DNA of 64,000 bases from Candidatus Parcubacteria bacterium (GCA_023131895.1 JAGLYZ010000003.1:1394-65393), one strand, 5' to 3'. Shown: positions 1,005 through 25,698, counted from the first letter of the stretch. A program made the numbers and translations. Notes: generated by a model not told the origin, from the letters alone.

Positions 1005-1006
1005 TT

Positions 1007-2782: not shown

Positions 2783-2784
2783 AT

Positions 2785-3153
2785 TTACTCGCTGAGTGCT
2801 TGCTTTACTTTTGTTATTACTTCTTTTAAACTGTAGTTTGCTTTTACTAAATAAGTAGTTGCGCCAAGCTCAATAGCTCTGTCAACATTATCCATTGTTT
2901 CTAAATTTGTTAAAACAATAATAGGAATGTCTTTTATCTCTTCATCTTCTTTAATCGCTTTTAAAACATCAAAACCATTTTGCTTTGGCAAGATAAGGTC
3001 AAGTAAAATTAAATCCGGTTTTTTTAATTTAGCTAATTTGAGGCCAACATCCCCGTCTAAAGCTGAAATTACTTTAAACCCTTCTTCTTCTAAAATTTTT
3101 CCAAAGGTTTTTTGAAGAGCAGCTTCGTCTTCAACAAATAGAACAGTTTTCAT
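2785..3153 (-). CDS. receiver-only (CheY-like) response regulator
   Basis: 122 aa: VLFVEDE...DLILLDLILP...VLTN...K pattern of a REC domain with no output domain. Its stop lies 2 nt from the pilB start. Confidence 0.85.
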   Translation of the reverse strand: MKTVLFVEDEAALQKTFGKILEEEGFKVISALDGDVGLKLAKLKKPDLILLDLILPKQNGFDVLKAIKEDEEIKDIPIIVLTNLETMDNVDRAIELGATTYLVKANYSLKEVITKVKQALSE

Positions 3154-3159
3154 AAAACT

Positions 3160-3247
3160 AAATCATTTTAACATCTTAACATTTTAACATATAAACATTC
3201 TGAATTTGAATTTTGTTAATACGTTAATACGTTAGTATGTTAATATG
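3160..3247. repeat. TAACAT/ATGTTA heptad palindromic element, copy A
   Basis: TCATTTTAACATCTTAACATTTTAACATATAAACAT...GTTAATACGTTAATACGTTAGTATGTTAATATGG. Related copies lie at 10118-10242 and 27290-27348. Confidence 0.7.
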
Positions 3248-3248
3248 G

Positions 3249-4214
3249 TTAGGTTATTGGTATTTTAAACCAAAAAGTTGAACTTTTCCCTTCATAGGAC
3301 TTAAAACCTATTTTACCGCCCATTTTATCTATTACTGATTTAGCAATAAACAAACCTAATCCGCTTCCCTGGGTTTGGTATCTTAAAGCATTGCTTGCCC
3401 TGAAGAATTTCTGAAAAATATATTTTTGGTCTTCTTTAGGGATACCAACACCTTGGTCTTTAACTTCAAAATAAATATTGTTCTGGGATTGCTTTAATTT
3501 TACTTCCACCGTGCCTGCCTTTTTAGTATAACGGACAGCATTATCTATAAAATTCTCTATAGGTAATTTAATCTGGCTAGGATCAATATAAATCATTGGC
3601 AAATTCTTCTGGCAATCAAATTTTACTTTAATATTTGAAGCATCAGCAAGGGCTTTAAATTCGAAAACAAATTTCTTGACTATTTTTTCTAAATCAGTCC
3701 TTTCTTTCTTTTCAGGTATTCCATCCTTTTCCATTCTGGAAACAATTAATAAATCATTTATTAACTCCTCCATTCTAGCACTGTTCTCTTTTAACATTTT
3801 TATAAAATTCAATAAATTTTCCTCTTTAACGTCTTCAATGCCTTCAGATATTATTAGTTCAATTCCCCACTTCAGATTAGTTAAAGGAGCTCTTAACTGA
3901 TGAGATACTATGCTGATAAACTCTGATTTCATACGACTGGCTTCTGCTAATTTTTCTAAACTATGGTTGATCACAAAGGAAATAATAAACAAAACTGTTG
4001 ATAATCCAAGAATAATTAAGGCTACTGTTTCTGGATTATCAAAATAACGAGTACCGATTAAATAAGTGCCAATGGCTGTAATAACAATAATACCACCCAT
4101 TACCACAAAAAGAAATTGTGGACATTCCCAAGTAGCCAAACCATATTTTTTACATTGCTTGAAAATATTTAATTGTTCTGAAATCTTTTTTTGTTTTTTA
4201 TACTCTGATATCAT
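3249..4214 (-). CDS. sensor histidine kinase
   Basis: 321 aa with two N-terminal hydrophobic helices, H-box SHQLRAPL and HATPase_c G-boxes (DQGVGI, GSGLGL). Confidence 0.85.
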   Translation of the reverse strand: MISEYKKQKKISEQLNIFKQCKKYGLATWECPQFLFVVMGGIIVITAIGTYLIGTRYFDNPETVALIILGLSTVLFIISFVINHSLEKLAEASRMKSEFISIVSHQLRAPLTNLKWGIELIISEGIEDVKEENLLNFIKMLKENSARMEELINDLLIVSRMEKDGIPEKKERTDLEKIVKKFVFEFKALADASNIKVKFDCQKNLPMIYIDPSQIKLPIENFIDNAVRYTKKAGTVEVKLKQSQNNIYFEVKDQGVGIPKEDQKYIFQKFFRASNALRYQTQGSGLGLFIAKSVIDKMGGKIGFKSYEGKSSTFWFKIPIT

Positions 4215-4305
4215 ATTATTATATTATATCATAATATTTTATTCTATCATATAGTATATCAAAGAATTGACTAAAAGCCAAAATTTTATTAAAATAAAGC
4301 TATTA

Positions 4306-4376
4306 CGGGGTATAGTGCAATGGCAGCACGAGTCCTTTGGGAGGATTTAATCCCAGTTCGAGTCTGGGTACCCCGA
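4306..4376 (+). tRNA. tRNA-Pro (anticodon TGG)
   Basis: Hand-folded cloverleaf: acceptor CGGGGTA/TACCCCG, anticodon arm AGTCC-TTTGGGA-GGATT, T arm CCCAG-TTCGAGT-CTGGG. CCA is not encoded. Confidence 0.85.
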
Positions 4377-4377
4377 C

Positions 4378-4448
4378 GCGGGTGTAGCTCAATGGCAGAG
4401 CTTCAGATTTCCAATCTGGTGATGAGGGTTCGATCCCCTTCACCCGCT
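4378..4448 (+). tRNA. tRNA-Gly (anticodon TCC)
   Basis: Acceptor GCGGGTG/CACCCGC, anticodon arm TCAGA-TTTCCAA-TCTGG, T loop TTCGATC, discriminator T. It starts 1 nt after tRNA-Pro. Confidence 0.85.
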
Positions 4449-4463
4449 CATAATCTTATATCT

Positions 4464-4492
4464 AAAAAACCGCGCCTATAACGCGGTTTTTT
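4464..4492. terminator. bidirectional rho-independent terminator (tRNA pair / hup)
   Basis: AAAAAACCGCG-CCTATAA-CGCGGTTTTTT, a stem with A and T runs on both sides, between convergent units. Confidence 0.75.
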
Positions 4493-4497
4493 GTTGG

Positions 4498-4770
4498 TTA
4501 TTTTACTGCTTCCTTTAAAATTTTTCCTGGTTTAAATTTAGGAACCTTAGCTGCTGGAATTTTAATCTTTTCTTTAGTTTGTGGATTAATACCCATTCTT
4601 TCCTTTCTCTTATTCACTACAAACTTGCCAAAACCAGTTAAGACAACTTCTCCTCCATTAGAAAGCTGCTTGGTAATTTCTTCCAAAACTACTGTTAAAC
4701 TTTCTTCAGCATCTCTTTTTGAAATGCCTACTTTTTTGCTTATTATTTCTGTTAATTCTTTTTTATCCAT
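4498..4770 (-). CDS. hup: HU/IHF-family DNA-binding protein
   Basis: 90 aa: ...GFGKFVVNKRKERMGINPQTKEKIKIPAAKVPKFKPGK..., the classic HU beta-arm. Confidence 0.9.
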   Translation of the reverse strand: MDKKELTEIISKKVGISKRDAEESLTVVLEEITKQLSNGGEVVLTGFGKFVVNKRKERMGINPQTKEKIKIPAAKVPKFKPGKILKEAVK

Positions 4771-6489: not shown

Positions 6490-8316
6490 TTAATGAGGTG
6501 GAATTTCTTTCCAATCAGGATAAGGAAGTTTTGGTTCAATATCTTTAGAAATAACACAAGGACCAAATCCATCTTTATCAATAATAGAAAGTATTATTTC
6601 ACCAGATGAAAAAAGTTTAACCTTAGGATTTTCAAATGTTTCACTTGTGCCGCCTACAAAGATACCATCACAGTCAGAGATATCCCAAAAAAATGTTCCT
6701 CCTGAGCAGGAAACTTCTTCATTATTTATATCATAGCAAACACTCACATCTAAATCACAAAGCCCTAGTTCCTCAACTGCGCACAATTGAATAGATACAT
6801 CTACTACTGGAGGATCTGGTTCCAAAGTGAAATCAGGCCATGGAGAAGCATGAGCATCAGTAAAGAAAGAAGGACCAGCCTTCCATCCTGAATCAGCTCC
6901 TTTACTATCAAAAACTTTTACCCACCAATAATAAATAGTATTATAGGTAATTTTATCTTCTACAATAGGACTCATAACTATTATTGCTTGACTATTATCA
7001 GAGCCATCAGGATTACTAAGCCCGTCAAAACTTTTATCAACCTCTGGACTTAAATCATTAACATTATTGATATTGTTCACCCGAAAATCAAACCTTGATT
7101 CAGTGTCTCCGTCAGTATCTTTATATGTCCATTTAAAACCAATTAAACCAACGCCTGAACCAATTCCGCAATAGACCTGATATTGAATTGTTTGTGACCC
7201 TAACTCAATATATGGACAATCATTATCACAAGCTCCCCAAACGCAAGAAGAACTGCAGGTTTGTTGACCGCAACCTCCATTACAATCCTTGGTCGCTCCA
7301 GGAGAACAAACGCCTTCGCCAGCGCAGGAACCCCAGATACAATCTACTTGACAGATTTGGCTACCGCAGTCCCCACAACCTTGGTTCGCTCCCGGAGAAC
7401 AAACGCCTTCGCCGGTACAAGAATCCCAAGCGCCCCAAATACCGTTAGCTTGGCAAATTCTATCTTGAGTACCACAATTACCGCAGGATTGAGATTGAGT
7501 AGAACCTGGCGGATGACATTCAACTACTATAAACGATTCCTTAGAAGTTGCTGTATAATTAAAATTATTATCAGTTGCTGTCGCCTGGTATTCAATTAAT
7601 GTTCCTGCTGAATAAGGTCCAATAGTAATGAAATGGGTACCGCCGGTTGGCCATTCATCTACCGGCGAATGGAGCGCGCCATTAACCCAATATTTTATTT
7701 TATGATTTTGAATACCGCAATCATCCCAAGCAGTGGAAGAAAAAGTAATAGTATTAACATCATAGACAGTATTCAATGGACTTCTGGAGAGATTTACACC
7801 ATCAATAATAGCGTCGCAACTAGGCTCGCAGGCGCAATCGCTATCAGCGCAATCTGTTTGTCCGTCGCAATCGTCGTCTATGCTGTTGTGACAGATTTCG
7901 AGGGGGACGCCCACATTGACTGTGTTAGTGGCGCTACCATACCAAGATTCTATCGGAGGATCGTAAGCATCTACTCTTATTTTGGCATCACTCGCCCAAT
8001 CGCAACCTAGGGTGACGGAATAGGAACAGGAGAGAGAATAACCGTCTCCTGAACAGGACATTTTTTGGAAATTCACTTTAGTGGTTCCTGCTGGAGATTC
8101 TATTGTAATGTTAACTTCGTTCGGGTCCGCTGTTCCAAACGCCTGTGTCACTGTTGCCATAATAGTATTGCTTTGATTCTTTGTCATATCACCAGAGGTT
8201 ATTGAAACAACTATGGGAGCCCATGTGGCTAAGGACACATCAGCGCCAATCAAAAACATCCCCAAAAATCCTAAAAGAGTTATTGATAAAATTATTCTGG
8301 TTTTTGTTTTAATCAT
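6490..8316 (-). CDS. secreted cysteine-rich repeat protein (hypothetical)
   Basis: 608 aa with a signal-like N-terminus. It has a DDDCDGQTDCADSDC (MopE-type Cys/Asp) motif and three tandem ~35-aa units C..CG.Q...C...C.WG.C.GEGVCSPGA. Confidence 0.6.
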   Translation of the reverse strand: MIKTKTRIILSITLLGFLGMFLIGADVSLATWAPIVVSITSGDMTKNQSNTIMATVTQAFGTADPNEVNITIESPAGTTKVNFQKMSCSGDGYSLSCSYSVTLGCDWASDAKIRVDAYDPPIESWYGSATNTVNVGVPLEICHNSIDDDCDGQTDCADSDCACEPSCDAIIDGVNLSRSPLNTVYDVNTITFSSTAWDDCGIQNHKIKYWVNGALHSPVDEWPTGGTHFITIGPYSAGTLIEYQATATDNNFNYTATSKESFIVVECHPPGSTQSQSCGNCGTQDRICQANGIWGAWDSCTGEGVCSPGANQGCGDCGSQICQVDCIWGSCAGEGVCSPGATKDCNGGCGQQTCSSSCVWGACDNDCPYIELGSQTIQYQVYCGIGSGVGLIGFKWTYKDTDGDTESRFDFRVNNINNVNDLSPEVDKSFDGLSNPDGSDNSQAIIVMSPIVEDKITYNTIYYWWVKVFDSKGADSGWKAGPSFFTDAHASPWPDFTLEPDPPVVDVSIQLCAVEELGLCDLDVSVCYDINNEEVSCSGGTFFWDISDCDGIFVGGTSETFENPKVKLFSSGEIILSIIDKDGFGPCVISKDIEPKLPYPDWKEIPPH

Positions 8317-11827: not shown

Positions 11828-13042
11828 CTATTTAGATTTATTAGATGTTTTTTTCTCTTTTGTCTTTTTCTCTTTTTTTTCTTCCTTGTCCGCCGTAGTC
11901 CCGCGTGGCGGGACGGGTTTTCCTTCTTCCGGGCTTCTAACATCTATTTTCCAGCCAGTTAATTTGGCTGCTAAACGGACATTTTGGCCATTTTTGCCAA
12001 TAGCTAAAGAAAGCTGATCTTCCGGCACCAAAACCAATGCCTTGTTTTTCGGCATAATCTTAACCTCTAAAACTTTGGCTGGAGACAAAGAATTCGCAAT
12101 ATATTTTTCAGGGGCATCAGAATATTCAATAATATCAATCTTTTCTCCGCCTAATTCATTAATCACTGCTGTAACCCTTGTTCCTCTTTGGCCAACCATA
12201 GCGCCAATAGGATCCATGCCTTCTGCGTCAGAACTAACAGCAATTTTTGAACGGGACCCAGCTTCTCTTGCAATTGACTTTATGAAAACCTGATCAGTTG
12301 AAATCTCTGGCACCTCCAACTCAAAAAGTTTTGAAACCATTTTGGGATAAGCCCTGGACAAAATAATCTGCGGTCCTTTAGGCGTGAGCTCCACATTTAA
12401 AACATAAAGCCGAAACCTCTGGTTAAGACGGTAAAATTCCCCTAAAATCTGCTCCTCTCTTGGCAAAATGCCAACTGTCTTGCCAATATCAAAGAAAACT
12501 GCTCTTTGCTCAATTCTCTGGACTAATCCAGAAATTATTTCTCCTATTTTTGATTCAAACTCCTGAAGAATTGACTCTCTTTCTACTTCTTTAATCTTTT
12601 GTAAAATTACCTGCTTGGCTGTCTGCGCCGCAATTCGGCCATAATCATCCTGTGTTTCTAAAGATAGCTCTAATTCATCCCCAACTTTTATCTTCGGCTC
12701 TATCTTTTTCGCTTCTTCAAATATAATATGCTTTTCTGGATTAAAACGGATTTTTTCCTCCTTGTCCGCCGAAGCTTCAGCAGAGGCGGATTCCTTTAAC
12801 TCCTCCAGTTCATCTTCAGAATAAATCATATCCTCTGAAACAACCATCTTTATCTGCCAAAATTTTACACTCCCTGTTTTTGGAGAAAGCTTAGCTTTAA
12901 TAATCTGCCCTTTTTTACCATAATCCTTTTTATAGGCAGCAGCCAATGCCTGCTCAATAACCTCAATCACTTTTTCTTGAGGGATGCCTTTTTCTTCAGC
13001 AATCTGTGTTACAGCTGATGTAAATGATTTAATTTCAAACAT
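11828..13042 (-). CDS. nusA: transcription termination/antitermination factor NusA
   Basis: 404 aa with N-terminal, S1 and two KH regions (...GMDPIGAMVGQRGTRV...AIGKNGQNVRLAAKLTGWKIDV...) and a Lys/Glu tail. Confidence 0.9.
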   Translation of the reverse strand: MFEIKSFTSAVTQIAEEKGIPQEKVIEVIEQALAAAYKKDYGKKGQIIKAKLSPKTGSVKFWQIKMVVSEDMIYSEDELEELKESASAEASADKEEKIRFNPEKHIIFEEAKKIEPKIKVGDELELSLETQDDYGRIAAQTAKQVILQKIKEVERESILQEFESKIGEIISGLVQRIEQRAVFFDIGKTVGILPREEQILGEFYRLNQRFRLYVLNVELTPKGPQIILSRAYPKMVSKLFELEVPEISTDQVFIKSIAREAGSRSKIAVSSDAEGMDPIGAMVGQRGTRVTAVINELGGEKIDIIEYSDAPEKYIANSLSPAKVLEVKIMPKNKALVLVPEDQLSLAIGKNGQNVRLAAKLTGWKIDVRSPEEGKPVPPRGTTADKEEKKEKKTKEKKTSNKSK

Positions 13043-13120
13043 AAAAAATTTTTAGAAAAGTCCGTTGAAAAGAACGGACTGTTTTTATAATAGCAAATCT
13101 AATAACTTTGTCAACTATTT

Positions 13121-13474
13121 GGTGGTGTTTGTTGGACGAAATCCGAACTTTCTTTGAGCAAAATCCAGAGGATTTTGCGGATTGAATCCCGCCCAGCGTT
13201 TCCGCCCGCCTTTGCTTCGCTACGGCGAGCAAAACAGAAAAATTTTCTAAACATTTTTTAATCGCCTGCCCCAAATTTTTTTCAATTAAGGAAAAGAAAA
13301 TTTTTCTGTTTTGATATTCTACTAACGCAGAATTGCGGAAACGCTTTCCCACCCCATAGTCCCGCTTTGCGGGACTGGCAAGCTGGCAAAAATTCATTTT
13401 CCCTACACCCCTTTTTCTTTTTGCCCGCCTGTTCTTTGACTCTGTCCTGAAAATTTTTTTGGCTGGCGTCGGGG
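13121..13474. repeat. structured ~350-bp repeat, copy X1 (body 13121-13377, 41-bp palindromic core 13385-13425, tail to 13474)
   Basis: The body is about 80% identical to the reverse complement of 21064-21314. 13378-13474 is 100% identical to the reverse complement of 14865-14961. Confidence 0.85.
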
Positions 13475-13501
13475 ATATATTAAGAGAGAGCAAACATAAG
13501 G

Positions 13502-13993
13502 TTACAAACCCAGCCGTTCAATCATATCTTTTTTCAGATTTATTGCAAAATTTCTCGCATCTTCTAAATCTTTTTTATTAGGTCTGCCTTTGTTTAGTCC
13601 ACCAGTAAATTTCAAAAATGGAATGTATCTATCAAAAAGATATGTATCAAACCCTCTACAAGAAAACTTCCCTACAATATCAAACCCCTTTTCTAACAAT
13701 TTTTTAAAAAGTGGCCGATGATAAAACCATACAGGACCTATACCTCTTGTTGAAAAAATAAATGCCTTTTTGTTTTTCATTATAGGTAGATTATCAACAA
13801 GAGCAAGTAATGCTTTATGCTGTTTAAAAAAATAAATTCCTGAGCCAAACCCAATGAGGTCGTATTTGGAAAGAGTATTCACCTCAATCTTATTGGGTCT
13901 CAATAATTCTGCATTAAAGATTTTAGCCATTTCTTTAGCAATTTTTTCTGTATTACCATTATGTATTGATATGTAAATAATTAGAGTTTTCAT
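13502..13993 (-). CDS. flavodoxin-like fold protein
   Basis: 163 aa: MKTLIIYISIHNGNTEKIAKEMA...IGFGSGIYFFK... Confidence 0.6.
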   Translation of the reverse strand: MKTLIIYISIHNGNTEKIAKEMAKIFNAELLRPNKIEVNTLSKYDLIGFGSGIYFFKQHKALLALVDNLPIMKNKKAFIFSTRGIGPVWFYHRPLFKKLLEKGFDIVGKFSCRGFDTYLFDRYIPFLKFTGGLNKGRPNKKDLEDARNFAINLKKDMIERLGL

Positions 13994-14451
13994 ATTAACA
14001 TTTCTAGATTTTTAAACTCCTCTTTTGCGTGTTTTTCAAGCGCCTCTTCAAATGCTTTTGTAAGATAAAATTTTTTCAAAAGCAAATCGATTATTTTACC
14101 GAATAATCCTTTGTATCCAACCTCTATTTTATGAATTACTTTCGCGCCTGTGTTCGTAGATTCGAAAGCTAACGAAAAATAACCAGAAATAAGCGATTTC
14201 CATTTATAAAGCAAAAATCTATTTGGTTCAACCTTTACAAGTTTTCCAGTAAGTTTTAATCTGAAGTGGTTAAATTGTTCATCTAAATAGACAATACTTC
14301 CCATTTCATTGGGTGTTCGTTTAATAGTCTTCCATGCTTTATGGGCGGGGTGCCACTTCTTATATTTCTCATCATCCAAATCGAGAATCCAGTTATATAT
14401 CTGTTCTGGAGTTTTGCCTTTTATCTCAATTTTCGTAATTATAATAATCAT
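13990..14451 (-). CDS. SRPBCC/START-like hypothetical protein
   Basis: 153 aa. Composition and length fit the SRPBCC fold. ATGA overlap with the flavodoxin-like gene. Confidence 0.4.
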   Translation of the reverse strand: MIIIITKIEIKGKTPEQIYNWILDLDDEKYKKWHPAHKAWKTIKRTPNEMGSIVYLDEQFNHFRLKLTGKLVKVEPNRFLLYKWKSLISGYFSLAFESTNTGAKVIHKIEVGYKGLFGKIIDLLLKKFYLTKAFEEALEKHAKEEFKNLEMLI

Positions 14452-14520
14452 ATTATCTCTCCCTCATAAGTTTATAGATTTTTTTATTTATTAGATTTTT
14501 CTAAAGCGAGGTTAGGAATT

Positions 14521-14733
14521 TCATTTTATTAAATCGCCAATATCAACCTTTAATGCTTTAGCGATTTTCGTTAAAGTTTCAATAGTGGGATTTGGATTTT
14601 CACCAGATTCAATTTTTACAATAGTATTATAAGCGACATCAGCAAACTTAGAAAGCTTATCTTGAGAAATCTCAAGTTTCTTTCTATAATGCTTGATATT
14701 TTTCGCTATTGTGGATAATCTTCTTGTTGACAT
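14521..14733 (-). CDS. XRE-family helix-turn-helix transcriptional regulator
   Basis: 70 aa: ...IKHYRKKLEISQDKLSKFADVAYNTIVKIESGENPNPTIETLTKIAKALKV... Confidence 0.85.
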   Translation of the reverse strand: MSTRRLSTIAKNIKHYRKKLEISQDKLSKFADVAYNTIVKIESGENPNPTIETLTKIAKALKVDIGDLIK

Positions 14734-14864
14734 TTGACTAATAATTTAATACTATTATAGTAGATGTTAGATATTAGATATAGTATATTTTTTCTCATTA
14801 ACTAATATAATGATACTAAATTATTTTAGTAATGTAAAGCAGCAAATTTATCTTTTTCGATTTG

Positions 14865-14999
14865 CCCCGACGCCAGCCAAAAAAATTTTCAGGACAGAGT
14901 CAAAGAACAGGCGGGCAAAAAGAAAAAGGGGTGTAGGGAAAATGAATTTTTGCCAGCTTGCTTATTCACTCTCTGATTTAGAATTTTATTGCTCCTGAT
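14865..14999. repeat. partial repeat copy X3 (tail + core 14914-14954 + 38-bp S1 arm 14962-14999)
   Basis: 14865-14961 is the exact reverse complement of 13378-13474. 14962-14999 matches the reverse complement of 20977-21014 at 35/38. Confidence 0.85.
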
Positions 15000-15005
15000 T
15001 TTTCT

Positions 15006-15087
15006 CTATAACGAATCGAGGATAAAAGAAATTCTGCGAGGCAGAATTTGGACGGAGCAAAGCGGAGTCTTTTATCCTCTGTTATCG
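15006..15087 (-). other. attC-like folded palindrome 4
   Basis: The minus strand reads CGATAAC-A-GAGGATAAAAGA-(38 nt)-TCTTTTATCCTC-GATTC-GTTATAG. Confidence 0.55.
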
Positions 15088-15170
15088 GAGTCTTGGCAAG
15101 CTGAGACCGAGCCACGAAGTGGCGAAGAGTTGCGGGGCTTTAATTTTTGTCATTAAAAGTTTTTTTCTCT

Positions 15171-16298
15171 TCACTCAGTTGTAGGATATAAAAGTCTTTC
15201 CCCTGATGCGACTCTCTTTACTAAATCTAAATTAACAAGTCTACAAAGGTCTTCTACTTTAGATTTAGCTGAATAGAAACCTAATGGATGATTTTCCATT
15301 GGAGGTATCCAAGAATCCTTATAGATAGTAACCCTAAGTTGTTCTATTTCTTGAATTTCATCATTATTGAGTTCATGATCAAAATATAAGAAAAGTTTCA
15401 TTTCGTCTGTGATATTTTTTTGCATGGCTTGCATTACAACTAGACTTTCAAATTTTTTGCTGTCTCTAATATCTTCTAGGTCACATTCAATTATAGATGG
15501 TTTTGCCTTGCATCCACATTGTTTACTGTTTTCCTCTGTAATTAAATCTGAATTTGAAATCCATGGACAGGGTTCTGATTCGTTTTTGGCTATTGCTTTA
15601 CAATACTCTTCACAGTTAATTTCTCTTTTTACCGTGCATTTGTTATCAACGCAAATAGGTGTGAATTTCTCTAAATTTAGGCAGTGAGAACATTGTGGTG
15701 GTGAGTAATAAGGGCAAGTTGGCGGGCACTTTGCTTTCATCTCCTGTTCGATTTTTTCTTTACTCTCTTTATTCACAACATTTGGTGATTCTCTTTTACA
15801 TGGGTCTGGAGGTGGACAACATCTAATAAAATCCAAAAATACACAATCTGAATCTTTTTCACAATATTTTTCATTATCTATGACTTTTGTCTTTTGGCTA
15901 CAACAATCAAAATAACATGTCCAGTCATATCCAAAAACAAAATTGCCTGATTTCCTTTCTTTTACAGAAGAAGCTTTAATAAATTTACAATCGCGATCAA
16001 TAAGATTAATATTTTTATATCTTTGCCATTCATCATACCAAACAGAGTCTTTTCCAATCTCCTTAGAGCACATCACTTGGATAAAATCCTTTAATCTATT
16101 TTCACACAATCTTTTTTGTTCTTCTGCGTTGGCTGGAGGACCTGCCTCATCGCCGGCACCCATTTCAAAGTAAATATTACTACAATCTACCTTTACCTGT
16201 TGAGTTGGTTGACTGCTCCAAAGCCACAATCCACCAACTACAACAATTCCAATTACTAAACAAACTATTCCAATTTTAATTTTCTTTTCCATAGTCAT
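15171..16298 (-). CDS. membrane-anchored cysteine-rich hypothetical protein (cassette ORF)
   Basis: 375 aa with about 30 Cys. N-terminal anchor ...VVVGGLWLWSSQPTQQV. Confidence 0.55.
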   Translation of the reverse strand: MTMEKKIKIGIVCLVIGIVVVGGLWLWSSQPTQQVKVDCSNIYFEMGAGDEAGPPANAEEQKRLCENRLKDFIQVMCSKEIGKDSVWYDEWQRYKNINLIDRDCKFIKASSVKERKSGNFVFGYDWTCYFDCCSQKTKVIDNEKYCEKDSDCVFLDFIRCCPPPDPCKRESPNVVNKESKEKIEQEMKAKCPPTCPYYSPPQCSHCLNLEKFTPICVDNKCTVKREINCEEYCKAIAKNESEPCPWISNSDLITEENSKQCGCKAKPSIIECDLEDIRDSKKFESLVVMQAMQKNITDEMKLFLYFDHELNNDEIQEIEQLRVTIYKDSWIPPMENHPLGFYSAKSKVEDLCRLVNLDLVKRVASGERLLYPTTE

Positions 16299-16348
16299 AA
16301 TTTAATTGTATTAAAGTTAATAAATATTTTCAAAAGCCTCGCCATTTC

Positions 16349-16426
16349 CGATAACGTATCCCAGATATACGAAGTCCCGAAGGGATTTGAGCGTAACGAA
16401 GTGAAGCCGTATATCTGGTGTTAGAT
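16349..16426 (-). other. attC-like folded palindrome 3
   Basis: The minus strand reads ATCTAAC-A-CCAGATATACG-(36 nt)-CGTATATCTGG-GATAC-GTTATCG. The TAA inside ATCTAAC is the stop codon of the upstream ORF. Confidence 0.55.
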
Positions 16427-17173
16427 GTTGTAAATTTTTAGGGATTTTGCGAATCTTCTCTCCCTGTACAACAACATACCGGCATAGATAACGCTTACAT
16501 TTAAAACAATTTGGGAAACTATTTCTATAAAAATTATCAATGGATTAAATCCAAAGAATATGACATAGTCAATCGTTCCATCTAATAAACCATATACTGG
16601 TGGTACCAAAAGAAATGTCTCAAGCCACATATAGATAAACGGTATCATAGCAATGCTAAATAATGTTGCTCGTCCTAACCAGTTGTTTTTTATATCAAAA
16701 TGTAATGCTAACAATATGTTCAGCAGCATAAAAATAACGGGTATCCGAATTGAAGTTAATATAAAAACGAATTCTTCTAATCCCATCAGGTCCCCTAAAA
16801 TATATGAGCCAAACCACAGTGTAAAGGCGGGGAATAATCCGGGATGCTCTAATGCCATTTCAGGTGTCAATGAAGATGTACTTAAAGCGTCTATAGCCCC
16901 CCATGATGTTAAAATCACAAAAAACCAGATTGGAACCCCAATCAGACCACGATATAAGTCCCACTTATACAATTTTTTAAGATTACCTTCTGGTGGTTTA
17001 CTCATTAACATACTGATAAACAGAATTGTAAAGCCAGCAACAATAAATACCATTCCTAATGCGCCAATACCCGCTTGATCTTCTGTAATTTGCGGCTTTG
17101 ACATTGTATCCAAAACCATGAATATACCAATAATTCCTAAAATCAAACCAATTGCAAATATGATTTTTTTCAT
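16421..17173 (-). CDS. polytopic membrane protein (hypothetical, cassette ORF)
   Basis: 250 aa with about 7 hydrophobic helices. Confidence 0.55.
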   Translation of the reverse strand: MKKIIFAIGLILGIIGIFMVLDTMSKPQITEDQAGIGALGMVFIVAGFTILFISMLMSKPPEGNLKKLYKWDLYRGLIGVPIWFFVILTSWGAIDALSTSSLTPEMALEHPGLFPAFTLWFGSYILGDLMGLEEFVFILTSIRIPVIFMLLNILLALHFDIKNNWLGRATLFSIAMIPFIYMWLETFLLVPPVYGLLDGTIDYVIFFGFNPLIIFIEIVSQIVLNVSVIYAGMLLYRERRFAKSLKIYNI

Positions 17174-17244
17174 AATTAATCCTATTGAAAATCTTTATTA
17201 ATAAAACTTTTCCCGAGCAAAATCCCGTTAAGAAAATTTATTGC

Positions 17245-17345
17245 ATCTAACATCTGGGATATACGAAGTTTTTCTGGAACGAAGTGGAAGAAAAATTTGG
17301 GTGAGGGGCGAGCCGAGCCCCGAACCGTATATCCTCTTGTTGTAC
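17245..17345 (-). other. attC-like folded palindrome 2
   Basis: The minus strand reads GTACAAC-AAG-AGGATATACG-(60 nt)-CGTATATCCC-AGAT-GTTAGAT. Confidence 0.5.
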
Positions 17346-17522
17346 GCCCCGACGACTGAAGGGAGGAGAGCGCAGCGTGGCTTGAGTTCAAAAAATATTT
17401 TTCGTTCTTATCCATCAAATAGGCTTTCGTTTATTTCTTATAAATTTGATTTTTTCCTATTTTAAAAATGGAAGAGGGGTTAGGGGTGAATTTCATTTTT
17501 TATGGTCAACCATATCATTATA

Positions 17523-18344
17523 TTATTGATGTTTATCAAGATTAACAACTTCAAACTTTGGATAATGAACTACAAATTGCGGAACACTAACATTTGAGTC
17601 CAATAATATTTTTTTTGTCTTATCAATAAATTCATTAAACTGCGTTTCATCCACCAGTATTTGATAATTTCTCAGGTAGTTTTCTCTAAGTATCTTTTTA
17701 AATTCTCCACCAGCGGCTTTTAAATTCATCATTTCAACAATGTAGTAATCTGCAAAATTTTTTGTTTTTGAAATCAATAATTTGATATTGATTAATTCAG
17801 GAATTACTGGGGATATAAAACAAAAAGTTTTAATCCTATTATTTTTTAGAGTTTTCAACGCCTTTATTCTTTCTTCATTACTGGGAGAATGCGGTTCAAA
17901 TAAATCTTTTGTATTTCCTTCAAAAGTATTAATTGTCAAACCGACTTCTATTTTTTTGAATTGTTTTAATAAATCAATGTCCCTTGTTATTAAATCTGAT
18001 TTTGTTAATATTGAAAGTTCTGTGCGTTTGTCCATGCTTTGCAAAATACGGCGTGTCAACTGCAATTCTTTTTCTGCTGGCTGATAAGGGTCGGAGACAG
18101 AAGACATAATGACTTTTCCATTAACAATTTTTTTTGCGAGTTCAGGAGCATTGATTTTCGCTTCTACCCAATCACCCCATTTCCCGTGATTTTTCCACCG
18201 GCACATAAATTTTGCGTAGCAATAAGTACAAGCATATTCACAGCCAATATATTGGTTTATTACATACTTTGCACTAGGAGTTTTCGTTTTTGTAAATATA
18301 CTCTTTGCATTAATTTTAATTATTTTGGCAGTCATAGTAATCAC
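17523..18344 (-). CDS. radical SAM protein, SplB/DNA-photolyase-like (COG1533-type)
   Basis: 273 aa with a CxxxCxxC cluster motif GCEYACTYCYAKF near the N-terminus. Confidence 0.7.
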   Translation of the reverse strand: MITMTAKIIKINAKSIFTKTKTPSAKYVINQYIGCEYACTYCYAKFMCRWKNHGKWGDWVEAKINAPELAKKIVNGKVIMSSVSDPYQPAEKELQLTRRILQSMDKRTELSILTKSDLITRDIDLLKQFKKIEVGLTINTFEGNTKDLFEPHSPSNEERIKALKTLKNNRIKTFCFISPVIPELINIKLLISKTKNFADYYIVEMMNLKAAGGEFKKILRENYLRNYQILVDETQFNEFIDKTKKILLDSNVSVPQFVVHYPKFEVVNLDKHQ

Positions 18345-18850
18345 TTAGAAGCACTTGCCTTACAGAGAGATCTCATTTTGCATTGAGAGCATCCTTTCTT
18401 TCTTCCGAATTGGTTTATTATCATAATCACAATAAAACCCAATAGAGAGATTCCACCAGAAATTAAAAATTCTCTATTCAAAAATATAGCAATTGGAATA
18501 ACAATAATTGGAATGAGTGTTAATAATCCCCAAGTCATGCCTGCTAATTTCATTCCGAGTTTGTAATCTCCTGATTTTTGTTTAAACTGGCATGAACTTA
18601 ATTTGCTCCAGCCACTTCCGCATAATTTACCATAATAATAGCAATGTGTGCAAAGATGTTTTCTTAGGACAATTCCCAACATTACTAATGCAAATGACAA
18701 ATAGAGTATGGAAATAATAGGGAATCCTGCAAATTTAAATGCCGACATTCCGTACGCCGCTAATCCAAACCATAATAACAACAGCGTGTTGGTTAAAATT
18801 ACTGATGATTTTGGATAATTCTCCAATCCTTTTTCGTATAGTTTTTCCAT
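18341..18850 (-). CDS. membrane protein with CxxC motifs (hypothetical)
   Basis: 169 aa with 4 TM segments, plus CTHCYYYGKLCGSGW and GCSQCKMRSLC. It overlaps the radical SAM start by 4 nt. Confidence 0.5.
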   Translation of the reverse strand: MEKLYEKGLENYPKSSVILTNTLLLLWFGLAAYGMSAFKFAGFPIISILYLSFALVMLGIVLRKHLCTHCYYYGKLCGSGWSKLSSCQFKQKSGDYKLGMKLAGMTWGLLTLIPIIVIPIAIFLNREFLISGGISLLGFIVIMIINQFGRKKGCSQCKMRSLCKASASK

Positions 18851-18852
18851 AA

Positions 18853-19182
18853 TTACTTTTCTCCAAAGCGACCAATAAAATAACCCATCAAACTTCCGAT
18901 AATAAGATTTGTAACCAGCATTGGAACTAGTTCTTGGGGACTGCCAGCAACTACTACAATCATCATTGGAAAGGCTATTAAAAAGAAAATTAGCGTTCCT
19001 TTTAAAGTATTATTCAATTTTAGGTTTGATGTTGATATGAGAAAACCGCCGATAACACACATCAAAAATGCTGATACTAATGTGTCCCAAGTCATTTTCA
19101 TAAGCATCATAGGGATTATATCAACTATACCAAAAATAATACCAATGATAAGTCCTACTTTTGTTTTGCTCATTTTTTCCAT
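18853..19182 (-). CDS. small membrane protein (hypothetical)
   Basis: 109 aa with 3-4 TM segments. Its stop lies 2 nt before the next start. Confidence 0.5.
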   Translation of the reverse strand: MEKMSKTKVGLIIGIIFGIVDIIPMMLMKMTWDTLVSAFLMCVIGGFLISTSNLKLNNTLKGTLIFFLIAFPMMIVVVAGSPQELVPMLVTNLIIGSLMGYFIGRFGEK

Positions 19183-19381
19183 AATCTTTACCTCTTTATT
19201 AAATATAAATATCGTTATTATATAAGTTTTGTTTTTCTTTTCAATTTATAAGTTGTTTTCGTAACGGAGTGGAGAAAACACAAATTATCCCCCTCTTTTG
19301 TTTCAGAAAAAATCAAATTTATTTCCCTTTTTAGAAAGCCCGTCATTCTTTTGTCTTTTAGAAAAATATTTTTTGAATTGC

Positions 19382-19472
19382 GTATAACATATAGTGCTAA
19401 AAGAAGTTGTTGCGTAGCAACAATTTGGATGGAACGACCGCAGGGAGTGAAATCTTTTAGCACTTGTTAAGT
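19382..19472 (-). other. attC-like folded palindrome 1
   Basis: The minus strand reads ACTTAAC-A-AGTGCTAAAAG-(50 nt)-CTTTTAGCACT-ATAT-GTTATAC. The plus strand ends in GTTAAGT (fits GTTRRRY). Confidence 0.55.
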
Positions 19473-19501
19473 GAAGTATGACGCAGCCGCCGAGTTAAAA
19501 T

Positions 19502-19945
19502 CTATTTCATCTTCTCGAGTTCCATTATGTTGTTAGGAGGTGTGGTAGCTTCATGAACTGTTATTTTACCTGTGAAGTCCACAAATACGTATCTGCATGG
19601 GTGTGCCCAGTTGGCCCATGGAGCGTCATCAACGAAGAAGAACCAACCCTCCTTCTGTGGGAGTTCAATTGAACTGTGCCAACTTTCTATGGTTGTGCCA
19701 GCTTTCACTGGTTTGGGACCTACATATACCCATTTCCCTTCGGTACTTCCATTCAAAAGCTCTGATATGACCAGATTGTAAGCATCCGTCTTGGATATGT
19801 TTTTATCTGCTTCAAATTCTTTCCATTCCTCAACTTGATCTAGTTGTTGACTATTCCAAATCCACAATCCTCCAACTAAAACAATTACCATAATCAAAAT
19901 TCCAATAAAGATTTTTGTTTTTGAATTCATAATAGTTTTCCTCAT
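19502..19945 (-). CDS. membrane-anchored/exported hypothetical protein (first cassette ORF)
   Basis: 147 aa. The N-terminal anchor ...VLVGGLWIWNSQQLDQV is shared with the 375-aa ORF. Confidence 0.55.
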   Translation of the reverse strand: MRKTIMNSKTKIFIGILIMVIVLVGGLWIWNSQQLDQVEEWKEFEADKNISKTDAYNLVISELLNGSTEGKWVYVGPKPVKAGTTIESWHSSIELPQKEGWFFFVDDAPWANWAHPCRYVFVDFTGKITVHEATTPPNNIMELEKMK

Positions 19946-20010
19946 AATTTTATTGTTAGACTTATTTATTAATCTTATGAGTTTATATGCTCGGCGGCGA
20001 GTAATATTTC

Positions 20011-20086
20011 ATTTAACTCGTTTCTATACGAATTGAATGTATAATATCGACCTTTTGTTGCATATTATACGAACTTAATGTATAAT
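20011..20086. promoter_or_regulatory. attI-like region: GTTAAAT core plus two 21-bp direct repeats
   Basis: Minus-strand GTTAAAT at 20017-20011. TATACGAATTGAATGTATAAT (20025-20045) and TATACGAACTTAATGTATAAT (20066-20086) match 18/21, and each has inverted TATAC/GTATA ends. Confidence 0.45.
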
Positions 20087-20146
20087 TATTAATGAAATTA
20101 CTAATAATTACTTAACTAACTTTAGTTTACTAATTTTTATAAAATT

Positions 20147-20962
20147 ATGCAACAAAAATATTTGGAACAAACAAGGCGGGAATTAAAATTAAGAAATTAT
20201 AGTTTCAAAACCATAAAGGCCTATCTCGGTTGTTTAAAAGAATATTTTGATTTTAAAAAATTTAATTTAGAAAAAATAGACGAGGAAAATATAAAGCAGT
20301 TTTTATTAAATAAACAAGACAAAAATTATTCTTCACAAACGATAAATCTTTACTTAAATGCAATAAAATTTTTTTACCGCGAAGTATTGAAAATTCCCGA
20401 AAAGATAAATTTGAAATTCGCCAAGCGAAGTAAAAAACTACCGATTGTTCTATCAAGAGAAGAAATTGAAAACATCATTGAGTCAATCAAAAATCCAAAG
20501 CATAAATTAATAATCTCTTTAGCTTATGGCGCCGGCTTGAGAATCAGTGAAGTTATTAGTCTAAAAGTAAAAGATGTCGATTTAGAAGAATTAACTATCC
20601 ATCTTAAAAACGCCAAAGGCAAAAAGGACAGAATCACTATTTTCCCGGAAAAAATTAGAAGAGATATTCAAGGTTTAATAGCCAGAAAAAATTCGGACGA
20701 TTATCTTTTTGAAAGCGAACGGGGCGGAAAATTAACCGAGCGGACAGCCCAAAAAGTTTTTGAAAACGCACTCCGAGGAACGGGTATAAAAAAAGACGCT
20801 ACATTCCATTCGTTAAGACACAGCTTTGCAACACATTTATTAGAAAATGGTGTTGATGTCAGGTATGTGCAGGAACTTTTAGGGCATCAGAATATCAGAA
20901 CAACTCAAATTTATACTCAGGTAACAAATCCAAAACTCAAAAACATTAAAAGTCCGTTATGA
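20147..20962 (+). CDS. tyrosine site-specific recombinase (IntI/Xer-like, lacks the IntI-specific insertion)
   Basis: 271 aa: ...YSFKTIKAYLGCLKEYF..., KKLPIVLSREEI, LAYGAGLRISEVISLKVKDVDL, KGKKDR, HSLRHSFATHLLENGVDVRYVQELLGHQNIRTTQIYTQV...IKSPL. The R..K..HxxR..H..Y catalytic pattern is present. Confidence 0.9.
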   Translation: MQQKYLEQTRRELKLRNYSFKTIKAYLGCLKEYFDFKKFNLEKIDEENIKQFLLNKQDKNYSSQTINLYLNAIKFFYREVLKIPEKINLKFAKRSKKLPIVLSREEIENIIESIKNPKHKLIISLAYGAGLRISEVISLKVKDVDLEELTIHLKNAKGKKDRITIFPEKIRRDIQGLIARKNSDDYLFESERGGKLTERTAQKVFENALRGTGIKKDATFHSLRHSFATHLLENGVDVRYVQELLGHQNIRTTQIYTQVTNPKLKNIKSPL

Positions 20963-20976
20963 TTAAAACGGGAAAA

Positions 20977-21314
20977 ATCAGAAGCAATAAAACTCTAAAT
21001 CAGAAAGTGAATAAGCTTAGTAAGCAAAAAGAAAAAGGGATGTGGGGGAAATGAATTTTTGCCCGCCTGCTGTCCCTCAAAACGGGACTGGGGTTGGGAG
21101 CGTTTCCGCAATTCTGCGTTAGCAGAATATCAAAACAGAAAAATTTTCTTTTCCTTAATTGAAAAAAATTTTGCGAGGGGCTATTAAAAAAATGTAGAGA
21201 AAATTTTTCTGTTTTGCTCGCCGTCAGGCGAGTGAAAACGCTGGGTCGGGGTTCAAAAATCCGCTTGCGGATTTTTCTCAAAATGAGTTCGGATTTCGTC
21301 CAGCAAACACCACC
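20977..21314. repeat. structured repeat copy X2 (S1 arm 20977-21014, core 21023-21063, inverted body 21064-21314)
   Basis: Reverse-complement match to the X1 body. The S1 arm and core are shared with X3. Confidence 0.85.
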
Positions 21315-21398
21315 ACTTCGCTTTTTGTAATTATAGATTAATGTTTATTATGCTCGTGTTTGCACCACGTAGCTCCGAGGCGTAACCGAGGAGCGAAG

Positions 21399-21472
21399 TG
21401 GTGGACCCAGCGAGAGTCGAACTCGCGACATCGCAATGCCATTGCGATATTTTACCACTAAACTATGGGCCC
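21399..21472 (-). tRNA. tRNA-Ala (anticodon GGC), CCA encoded
   Basis: Acceptor GGGCCCA/TGGGTCC with the G3:U70 identity pair, anticodon arm TCGCA-ATGGCAT-TGCGA, T loop TTCGACT, then ACCA. Confidence 0.85.
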
Positions 21473-21982
21473 TTATTTTTTTCTATCTAAAATTTTTTTG
21501 CTTTTCTTTTCAACATCCTTGCGAAATGCTGATAAAATTTTCCTTCCTAGAATAATATGCTGTTCAATAACTTTTCTCCAGATATGATTCAGGTAAATAA
21601 TATTAAAAAGAACCACTGAAATAACCACTACCGCATCAAGACTGTGCCTAAGCCAATAATTATCATCTAAATGAAGCCACATTCCGAACTCGTCAAAAGC
21701 TAAAGCTAATCCAATGCCGTAAATTTTAGCTATTTTCAAGCGATGTTCTTCTTTTTCGCTTACCAGAAGCAAATAGCCGACAACAGCTAAAGTAAAAATG
21801 CCAATATTAAAATGATGGACTTCTATGCCTTTTATCATTAAAGACAGCTCTGGGATATACCCATAAGTCCAGGCATAAACTAATATTCTTACAATAACAA
21901 AAGTGGCAAAAAAATAAACCAAAACAACAAAAGGCACCTTCCTATTATGTTTTCCAAAAAGATTATAATAAAGTTTGTTCAT
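21473..21982 (-). CDS. membrane protein (hypothetical), sandwiched between two tRNA genes
   Basis: 169 aa with 4 TM segments. The ATG lies 7 nt after tRNA-Arg, and the stop codon abuts tRNA-Ala base 1. Confidence 0.55.
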   Translation of the reverse strand: MNKLYYNLFGKHNRKVPFVVLVYFFATFVIVRILVYAWTYGYIPELSLMIKGIEVHHFNIGIFTLAVVGYLLLVSEKEEHRLKIAKIYGIGLALAFDEFGMWLHLDDNYWLRHSLDAVVVISVVLFNIIYLNHIWRKVIEQHIILGRKILSAFRKDVEKKSKKILDRKK

Positions 21983-21989
21983 ATTACTG

Positions 21990-22061
21990 TGCCCTTGACA
22001 GGAGTCGAACCTGTATCAGAGGTTTAGGAAACCCCAATTCTATCCATTAAACTACAAGGGC
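21990..22061 (-). tRNA. tRNA-Arg (anticodon CCT)
   Basis: Acceptor GCCCTTG/CAAGGGC, anticodon arm GGGGT-TTCCTAA-ACCTC, T arm ACAGG-TTCGACT-CCTGT. Confidence 0.8.
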
Positions 22062-22070
22062 GTCATTTAA

Positions 22071-22118
22071 AGAATAGCATATCTTTTTCTTGCTGACAAT
22101 TGTGTTTTATGGTAAAAT
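22071..22118. promoter_or_regulatory. overlapping divergent promoters (tRNA-Arg operon on the minus strand; htrA on the plus strand)
   Basis: Minus: TTGTCA (22099-22094)-17-TATTCT (22076-22071). Plus: TTGCTG (22090-22095)-17-TAAAAT (22113-22118) with a TG extension. The plus TSS is predicted at or next to the htrA ATG. Confidence 0.45.
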
Positions 22119-23712: not shown

Positions 23713-23770
23713 TTTCTTCTTTTCACCTCCTATTTTTTATTCTCAACGAACCATGAATTTTCGTTTGTCT

Positions 23771-23803
23771 AAAAACGAAAACCCCTTCCTTCTCAGGAAG
23801 GGG
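23771..23803 (-). terminator. rho-independent terminator of hisS
   Basis: The minus strand reads CCCCTTCC-TGAGAA-GGAAGGGG followed by TTTTCGTTTTT. Confidence 0.75.
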
Positions 23804-23912
23804 CTATTTTGATAATTTTTAAAATATCAACACAACCCTTTCCTGAGAAAGAAAAAGTTATGATGATGAGAATCTACTACTTTATTTAATTGTTTTAAAT
23901 TTATAAAATTCA

Positions 23913-25176: not shown

Positions 25177-25251
25177 GGTGGACGACGGGGAACGATCCCG
25201 CATCCCTAGCTCCACAAGCTAGTACTCTAAACCAATTGAGCTACATCCACC
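25177..25251 (-). tRNA. tRNA-His (anticodon GTG) with G-1; atypical T loop
   Basis: G-1 + GTGGATG/CGTCCAC + C73, anticodon arm CTAGC-TTGTGGA-GCTAG, T arm GCGGG-ATCGTTC-CCCGT (A54/T58 instead of T54/A58). Confidence 0.7.
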
Positions 25252-25625: not shown

Positions 25626-25698
25626 GGCGAACGAGGAGATTCGAACTCCCCCTTAGATCTCCACAGGATCTAGTGCTAACCACTACACTACGTTCGCC
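25626..25698 (-). tRNA. tRNA-His (anticodon GTG), canonical
   Basis: G-1 + GCGAACG/CGTTCGC + C73, anticodon arm AGATC-CTGTGGA-GATCT, T arm GGGAG-TTCGAAT-CTCCT. Confidence 0.8.

Follow-up and report, generated by a model that had tools for sequence, protein, structure and literature searches.

Two tRNA-led protein genes in a Parcubacteria genome: predicted co-transcription, a histidine T-box and mRNA ends that may be made by tRNA processing

How is a bacterial protein gene expressed when its start codon lies seven nucleotides (nt) behind a tRNA? The question arises twice in a 64-kb stretch of DNA from a Candidatus Parcubacteria bacterium (GCA_023131895.1, JAGLYZ010000003.1:1394-65393; hereafter the window), where one such gene encodes a predicted membrane protein of 169 amino acids and the other is hisS, encoding histidine--tRNA ligase (HisRS). 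An earlier note on this DNA had proposed that both genes are punctuated by tRNAs in the mitochondrial manner, with tRNA processing releasing near-leaderless mRNAs. Our analysis favours two compact mixed tRNA/mRNA units, from which the tRNAs are probably excised and whose processed mRNAs would be translated independently of a Shine-Dalgarno (SD) sequence; that each open reading frame (ORF) is co-transcribed with its tRNA is very likely.

The first unit lies on the minus strand. A promoter-like TTGTCA-17-TATTCT with a TG before its -10 hexamer (22099-22071) ends 9 nt 5' of G1 of tRNA-Arg(CCU) (22061..21990; found by ARAGORN and by Rfam, tRNA score 63 bits), whose discriminator A is at 21990 and whose CCA is not encoded. 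The spacer CAGTAAT (21989-21983) follows, ending in the AAT|ATG context typical of this genome, and then the ORF for the 169-residue protein (21982-21473), from an ATG at 21982 to a TAA at 21475-21473. Directly after this TAA comes G1 of tRNA-Ala(GGC) (21472..21399), whose CCA is encoded in the window and missing in two relatives, L085 and L086 (L-numbers denote loci of relatives). The protein carries HH and FDEFGMW motifs; searches of Pfam and NCBIfam placed it in no family, and its AlphaFold2 model reached a mean confidence (predicted local distance difference test) of only 62.

The second unit, on the same strand, belongs to a longer array that reads promoter, tRNA-Arg(UCU), tRNA-His2, promoter, T-box leader, terminator, tRNA-His1, 7 nt, hisS and terminator. 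Its upstream part comprises a promoter-like TTGACC-17-TATAAT (25821-25793), tRNA-Arg(UCU) (25782-25709; ARAGORN, Rfam) and tRNA-His2 (GUG; 25698-25626), a "type A" housekeeping copy with an encoded G-1 at 25698 and the canonical T-loop TTCGAAT; its orthologues in L085 and L086 likewise come after tRNA-Arg(UCU). A second and strong promoter-like sequence, TTGACA-16-TATACT (25614-25587; 11/12 matches), precedes the T-box leader. Beyond the leader and its terminator lies tRNA-His1 (GUG; 25251-25177), the hisS-linked "type B" copy, which has G-1 at 25251, C73 at 25177 and no CCA, and is separated by the spacer CAAAAAT (25176-25170) from hisS (25169-23913; 418 amino acids; Pfam tRNA-synt_His, 2e-45, and HGTP_anticodon).

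ARAGORN and Rfam find seven tRNAs in the window, which has a GC content of 34.6% and which protein matches place in a Candidatus Parcubacteria metagenome-assembled genome. All tRNA/ORF junctions were verified base by base. The 7-nt distances from tRNA-Arg(CCU) and from tRNA-His to the following ATG, and the contact between the stop codon and the first base of tRNA-Ala, are exactly as the earlier note had described them. Mis-called start codons were ruled out for both genes by the conservation of their N-termini: the 169-residue protein keeps an M[NKG]K[IL].. start across 34 homologues, and HisRS homologues align from residue 1, supporting the ATG at 25169. The T-box leader and the second tRNA-His, on the other hand, had both been overlooked in that first reading.

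The T-box leader bears most directly on how hisS is transcribed. It matches RF00230 over the full model (positions 1-219) at 25561-25311 with 93.2 bits (E = 4e-19), a narrow margin over the gathering score of 93, with 97.8 bits for its orthologues in L087 and L088; the L087 counterpart of its promoter is TTGACA-16-TAAGAT. The specifier is CAC, for histidine, at 25468-25466, in the context AAA-CAC-G (25471-25465) with a purine following, and in L087 the context is GAA-CAC-G. A UGGG bulge (25351-25348) can pair with the C73-CCA end of tRNA-His, C73 being present in both tRNA-His copies of the window. The terminator (25324-25254) has 13-base-pair arms at 25324-25312 and 25277-25265, a T-run (TTTTTTGTTTT, 25264-25254) and a fold of -39.2 kcal/mol (z = -4.1); its 5' arm and the 3' side of the antiterminator share positions in the Rfam alignment. 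With specifier, bulge, full-model score and terminator all present, the leader is by its sequence a T-box, for which antitermination by uncharged tRNA is predicted.

This terminator ends 2 nt before G-1 of tRNA-His1. Because it stands upstream of that tRNA, hisS can be reached only by transcribing through the tRNA, and since hisS is the only sensible target of a His T-box, tRNA and mRNA should be one transcript; the placement of the T-box is strong indirect evidence for a tRNA-His1-hisS co-transcript. Moreover, the 7-nt spacers leave no room for a promoter, which argues for co-transcription in both units, and the bases 7-12 nt upstream of the two ATGs (GGGCAC and CCACCC) are not -10-like. The mixed tRNA-mRNA operon arrangement is kept in L082, L085, L086, L087/L088, L100, L171 and L172, and the TTGTCA-17-TATTCT hexamers upstream of tRNA-Arg(CCU) recur in L085 and L086. 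The co-transcription part of the punctuation reading is thus supported by the lack of spacer room, the upstream promoter-like sites, the T-box and the conserved unit. The mitochondrial comparison holds for tight junctions at two places and does not extend to the genome at large, since only 2 of the roughly 55 window genes are flanked by tRNAs.

Is the arrangement conserved, and is the distance? Contigs of close relatives were retrieved one at a time, and broad scans of genome and metagenome contigs listed mostly distant relatives. In nine loci a member of the 169-residue family stands behind tRNA-Arg(CCU) or tRNA-Gly(UCC), and the unit of tRNA-Arg(CCU), ORF and tRNA-Ala is kept in four relatives. 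L085 (83% identity) and L086 (78%) have the promoter, tRNA-Arg(CCU), an 8-nt spacer, the ORF and a TAA abutting tRNA-Ala at 0 nt; L082 has 23 nt before the ORF and 4 nt after it, with a clear terminator 3' of tRNA-Ala; and L100 has 13 nt before and 12 nt after. More distant members stand behind a tRNA-Pro-tRNA-Gly(UCC) pair, starting 12 (L089), 14 (L091), 5 (L104) or 1 nt (L124) past the discriminator, which gives discriminator-to-ATG distances of 8, 8, 23, 13, 12, 14, 5 and 1 nt across the family. In the homologue P0135 the stop codon is lost and the reading frame enters the tRNA. The conserved feature of this family, as these loci present it, is that it rides on tRNA operons.

The window has its own copy of the tRNA pair (4306-4500), with 1 nt between tRNA-Pro(UGG) and tRNA-Gly(UCC) and a clean intrinsic terminator (ACCGCGCCTATAACGCGGTTTTTTG) 3' of tRNA-Gly; in L089 and L104 the pair leads directly to the homologue of the 169-residue protein.

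For hisS, tRNA-His lies immediately upstream in 5 of 9 distinct close-clade loci, and a co-oriented tRNA-His occurs within 2.5 kb upstream in 6 of 80 loci of distant GTDB species among the matches listed, three of the six (L003, L004 and, at about 4 nt, L038) being directly adjacent. L087/L088, with HisRS 87% identical, have the T-box, the terminator, tRNA-His and a 99-nt spacer with hairpins before hisS. L082/L083 (79%) have tRNA-Arg(UCU), tRNA-His and then CAAAAAT with 21 extra nt before hisS, and no T-box. L081, L169, L170 and L084 (72-77%) have no tRNA: a short ORF with the consensus M..KNLI.IHHHTILLLPK.. is followed by a terminator and directly by hisS. L171 (71%) combines such a His attenuator with a tRNA-His and hisS 9 nt past the discriminator, and in L172 (67%) an ORF ending ..HHH.. 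and a terminator are followed 3 nt on by tRNA-His, with hisS again 9 nt past the discriminator. The short ORFs and their terminators (AACCTCTT..AAGAGGTTTTTT) lie at 5861-6000 in L081, 5867-6000 in L084, 2337-2500 in L169, 1403-1561 in L170 and 350-490 in L171; at the position that the T-box has in the window, they constitute what we read as a classic His leader-peptide attenuator. No T-box was found in L081-L084 or L169-L172, upstream of hisS in 20 loci of distant Patescibacteria at the gathering score, or in the six GTDB loci with tRNA-His at E <= 0.1. On the gene order of these loci, tRNA-His precedes hisS in many Patescibacteria.

The discriminator-to-ATG distances of hisS in relatives are about 9, 9, 28, 99, 4 and 30 nt. 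The meaning that the earlier note had attached to exactly 7 nt does not survive this comparison, as relatives vary from 1 to 23 nt in the 169-residue family and from 4 to 99 nt for hisS. What recurs far beyond chance, as judged from these loci, is the tight tRNA-to-ORF linkage itself.

Additional cases of an ORF starting directly after a tRNA were seen in two other loci. In L014 (1142-1330) a 25-codon ORF (MKNKILNILNHRHTVAVKSAGFLTA) begins 5 nt past the CCA of tRNA-His, with a terminator, an M20-peptidase-like gene and hisS coming after it, and in L001 (1229-1489) the ATG of an 85-codon ORF lies 3 nt past the tRNA-His discriminator. Fragments of these tRNA genes also occur: L086 has a partial duplicate of the tRNA-Arg 5' half (6840-6915) upstream of tRNA-Arg(CCU), and L087 has a remnant of the tRNA-His 5' end (GGTGGGCGTAGTATAGT, 630-660) just upstream of the T-box promoter. 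The fragments suggest past recombination at these tRNA genes.

How would ribosomes start on such mRNAs? The earlier note was right that neither spacer contains an SD sequence, but this is not specific to them: GGAG, GAGG or AGGA occurs at -20 to -4 of 7 of the 55 window genes, compared with 9.4% of random 17-mers, and with no SD enrichment anywhere in the window, SD absence was rejected as a special feature of tRNA-led genes. Start codons instead have T at -1 in 42 of 55 genes and A at -3 in 36 of 55, with G almost missing at -1, -3 and -7, and both 7-nt spacers share the AAT|ATG ending. TANNNT peaks exactly 6 nt before the ATG (9 of 55 genes, compared with about 2 at other offsets), and htrA, encoded divergently on the plus strand, is one of these genes. 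Its promoter, TTGCTG-17-TGgTAAAAT (22090-22118; TTGCTG at 22090-22095, TGGTAAAAT at 22110-22118), has the coordinates that the earlier note gave, and the ATG at 22125 lies 6 nt past TAAAAT, which predicts a leaderless mRNA start. The htrA promoter is kept in L085 (TTGTTG-17-TGtTAAAAT-6 nt-ATG) and not in L086 or L082. Start context, missing SD sequences and the TANNNT peak together suggest leaderless and Kozak-like initiation in this genome, and near-leaderless mRNAs from the two tRNA-led genes would fit the SD-free window and the TANNNT peak.

The proposed course of events is as follows. The promoter at 22099-22071 would drive tRNA-Arg(CCU), the 169-residue gene and tRNA-Ala(GGC) as one RNA, and the promoter at 25614-25587 would drive the His-specific leader. 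Uncharged tRNA-His would pair with the CAC specifier and the UGGG bulge, so that the terminator is bypassed and tRNA-His1 and hisS are transcribed; the T-box would in this way co-induce the synthetase and a copy of the tRNA that the leader itself senses. In bacterial tRNA maturation, cleavage by RNase P at tRNA 5' ends and an RNase Z-type cut after the discriminator are expected. RNase P would here remove the T-box leader and end the mRNA of the 169-residue protein exactly at its UAA, and an RNase Z-type cut would follow the discriminators of tRNA-Arg(CCU) and tRNA-His1, since neither of these upstream tRNAs encodes CCA. The processed mRNAs would begin CAGUAAUAUG and CAAAAAUAUG, with 7-nt, A/U-rich, 5'-monophosphate leaders, and initiation on them would take the SD-independent, leaderless-like route that is apparently general in this organism. 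We infer both cleavages, and the processed RNA as the translated species, from the sequence.

Several observations weigh against this course of events. The spacers of the two genes range from 1 to 99 nt across relatives, so no precise distance is selected. The predicted processed leader, 7 nt in the window, 5 nt in L104 and 1 nt in L124, is at 7 nt neither classically leaderless nor leadered. An mRNA that ends at its stop codon would have no protective 3' hairpin and might be a substrate for ribosome rescue. None of rnpB, rnpA, rnz and cca turned up in the window, and Rfam found no RNase P RNA in its 64 kb, which is silent on the rest of the genome. Finally, a weak promoter-like ATGACG-18-TAGAAT (22066-22037; 9/12 matches) lies inside tRNA-Arg(CCU).

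The most serious alternative, which we nevertheless consider unlikely, is passive genome compaction: tRNAs and ORFs would be co-transcribed, and excision of the tRNA would have no role in expression. Ordinary SD-independent initiation would act on precursors that are unprocessed or only partly processed, the adjoining tRNA being melted by ribosomes or helicase activity, and the junctions would reflect nothing but spacer deletion. The free variation of spacing among relatives (1-99 nt) is what compaction would give, and CAAAAAT with its 21 additional nt in L082 looks like a simple indel. Compaction is also general, as the single nucleotide between tRNA-Pro and tRNA-Gly illustrates, and relatives that have only an attenuator begin hisS a few nt past the terminator hairpin, likewise without an SD sequence. 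However, the 30S subunit occupies the region around the AUG, as ribosome footprints show, and a folded tRNA 7 nt from the AUG, or 1 nt in L124, sits within that zone, so its removal or unfolding seems necessary. Moreover, tRNA processing enzymes act on all tRNA precursors anyway, and the repeated placement of the 169-residue family behind two different tRNAs suggests that the position is useful.

Whether tRNA-His1 is itself a working tRNA bears on the other readings. Among six hisS-linked tRNA-His copies, 99.2% of cells are paired, 12 pairs have changed on both sides, and G-1:C73 and the GUG anticodon are invariant; these compensatory changes and invariant identity elements ruled out a decaying pseudogene. 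Its T-loop is non-canonical, AUCGUUC, with A54/U58 instead of T54/A58, while the T-loops of all other tRNAs in the window are canonical. A54/U58 occurs in 4 of the 6 copies: AUCGUUC in the window (25177-25251), AUCGUGC in L087 (1047-1120), AUCAUGC in L172 (2418-2493) and AUCAUUC in L003 (2359-2431). L088 has the same swap, L082 and L171 are canonical, and A54/U58 versus T54/A58 covaries perfectly over the six copies.

There is a more far-reaching proposal, which we regard as quite unlikely. His attenuators, whether T-box or leader peptide, would in a clade of Parcubacteria control a specialised A54:U58 tRNA-His isodecoder together with hisS, and the tRNA would be both inducible and an obligatory, self-excising 5' untranslated region (UTR) of hisS. 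Excision would create the leaderless-type mRNA, tRNA processing and possibly HisRS binding would act as a second checkpoint, and bacteria of the Candidate Phyla Radiation (CPR) would regularly use tRNA excision to make SD-less mRNAs.

It is improbable that the chief role of tRNA-His1 lies in cis, as a tRNA-like part of the hisS leader, and not in decoding. In that case it would serve as a dedicated processing signal, or excess HisRS would bind it as an operator and block the AUG 7 nt away, which would add translational autoregulation to T-box control. Such a role would suit the presence of canonical tRNA-His2 375 nt upstream, the non-canonical T-loop of the window copy shared with L087/L088, L172 and L003, and the invariance of the HisRS identity elements G-1:C73 and GUG. 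Yet tRNA-His1 keeps a complete cloverleaf and its anticodon, as a working tRNA would. The equivalent copies of L082 and L171 have canonical T-loops, and the hisS-linked copy of L082 has taken the place of type A after tRNA-Arg(UCU), in about 10 kb of genome seen, with a second copy possible elsewhere. Spacers of 28-99 nt in relatives would moreover keep the AUG clear of steric occlusion.

Independent promoters inside the tRNA genes, giving separate leadered mRNAs for the two ORFs, are highly improbable: the weak sigma-70-like match in tRNA-Arg(CCU) described above is the sole internal one there and lies in the D-arm region, such matches are common in AT-rich DNA (9 in the region against 2.9 expected), none is listed inside tRNA-His1, the hexamers upstream of the ATGs are not -10-like, and an internal promoter would bypass the T-box and leave a conserved leader pointless.

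Which known systems does the proposed excision of tRNAs from mixed transcripts resemble? In animal mitochondrial DNA, the tRNA punctuation model of Ojala, Montoya and Attardi has coding sequences butted on tRNAs. The likeness here lies in junctions with 7 nt before the coding sequence and 0 nt after it, in mRNA ends predicted from RNase P and RNase Z, and in mRNAs that would be leaderless or near-leaderless and without SD sequences. Unlike in mitochondria, only 2 of about 55 genes are flanked, promoters and terminators belong to the individual units, the stop codon is encoded in full and needs no polyadenylation, and the case is drawn from sequence. Mixed tRNA-mRNA operons are known in Escherichia coli, namely thrU-tyrU-glyT-thrT-tufB and tyrT-tpr, and share with the present units a promoter upstream of the tRNA(s), a co-transcribed protein gene and an mRNA 5' end made, here as a prediction, by tRNA processing. 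Their spacers are long enough for an SD-containing leader, whereas the units here have 7 nt (most relatives 1-14 nt) and no SD sequence, with a second tRNA abutting the stop codon. The t-elements of plant mitochondria (PMC1920247) are tRNA-like structures beside coding regions that set both ends of mRNAs through RNase P and RNase Z; they are degenerate and non-decoding, whereas the window has full tRNAs with conserved identity elements.

The regulatory part has closer counterparts. Like the hisS T-boxes of Bacillus and Lactobacillus, the window leader runs full-length from Stem I to the antiterminator, with a CAC specifier, a UGGG bulge and an intrinsic terminator; it differs in its host, a member of the CPR/Parcubacteria, in that the first gene past the terminator is the ligand's own tRNA-His, and in that the regulated mRNA is without a conventional 5' UTR or SD sequence. 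The short His ORFs and terminators of L081, L084, L169, L170 and L171 resemble hisL-type attenuators, such as the leaders of the Bacillus hisS paralogue and hisZ (PMC2965389). Unlike those systems, the window has a T-box instead, and L171 has a tRNA-His between its attenuator and hisS. Exchange of T-box and His leader peptide upstream of hisS has been described in Firmicutes (PMC2965389), and the same exchange is seen here among Parcubacteria, between the window and L087/L088 on one side and L081, L084 and L169-L171 on the other. The literature searched contained no report joining a T-box with CPR or Patescibacteria, nothing relevant on tRNA-His/hisS co-transcription and no record of a tRNA-His between a regulated terminator and a start codon.

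Past the ends of the two units lie features of a different kind. The intrinsic terminator 3' of hisS (23805-23780, minus strand) has an 11-base-pair GC-rich stem with 6 G-C pairs and a T-run; the stem was also called terminator-like on the plus strand (23782-23803) and may act bidirectionally between hisS and htrA. A second hairpin 3' of hisS on the minus strand (23831-23862) is long and AT-rich, with 14 pairs of which 3 are G-C, and weak Rfam matches to miRNA and trpB-motif families over 23770-23864, far below gathering scores, are due to the two hairpins.

Downstream of tRNA-Ala, nusA-clpP lie within about 80 nt of the tRNA in L085 and L086 and 8.3 kb away in the window (nusA 13042-11828, clpP 11812-11225). 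The inserted block (13120-21315) is bounded by long imperfect terminal inverted repeats (for example 13120-13166 and 21269-21315, 89%; 13222-13345 and 21099-21224) and contains a perfect 97-nt inverted repeat (13378-13474 and 14865-14961). Its cargo includes a tyrosine recombinase (20147-20962), a radical SAM protein (18344-17523), a flavodoxin-like protein and several ORFs without database hits; the ORFs at 21000-21281 and 13035-13493, inside the repeats, are probably not genes. The block resembles a mobile island that entered at the tRNA-Ala 3' end, and the CCA missing from L085 and L086 may have come with this insertion; no direct repeat of the tRNA-Ala 3' end of at least 11 nt, as an attachment site, was found at the island's far end. 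In the nusA leader, downstream of a TTGACA promoter, a conserved hairpin GTCCGTT..AACGGAC with a T-run (window about 13055-13090; L085 7625-7655) may be a NusA autoregulatory attenuator. L081 has two LAGLIDADG homing-endonuclease ORFs (2634-3209 and 3560-4036) in its rRNA operon (1-4601), between the Rfam 23S match, which ends at 1796, and the 5S rRNA (4491-4601); they may be signs of sequence associated with an intron or insertion.

CPR/Patescibacteria are uncultivated and their rules of gene expression mostly obscure, and this locus offers an entry point to both initiation and attenuation. It presents an apparently functional T-box and, in relatives, His leader-peptide attenuation within a CPR group, and a natural case of a riboswitch placed over the gene for its own ligand tRNA and the cognate synthetase. 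At the conserved tRNA-AUG junctions of 1-14 nt, mRNA 5' ends would have to come from tRNA processing, which makes testable the question of whether bacterial ribosomes initiate on RNase Z-generated, 5'-monophosphate, near-leaderless mRNAs. If they do so here, these units would be a bacterial parallel to mitochondrial tRNA punctuation, and gene calling and operon prediction in reduced genomes would be affected.

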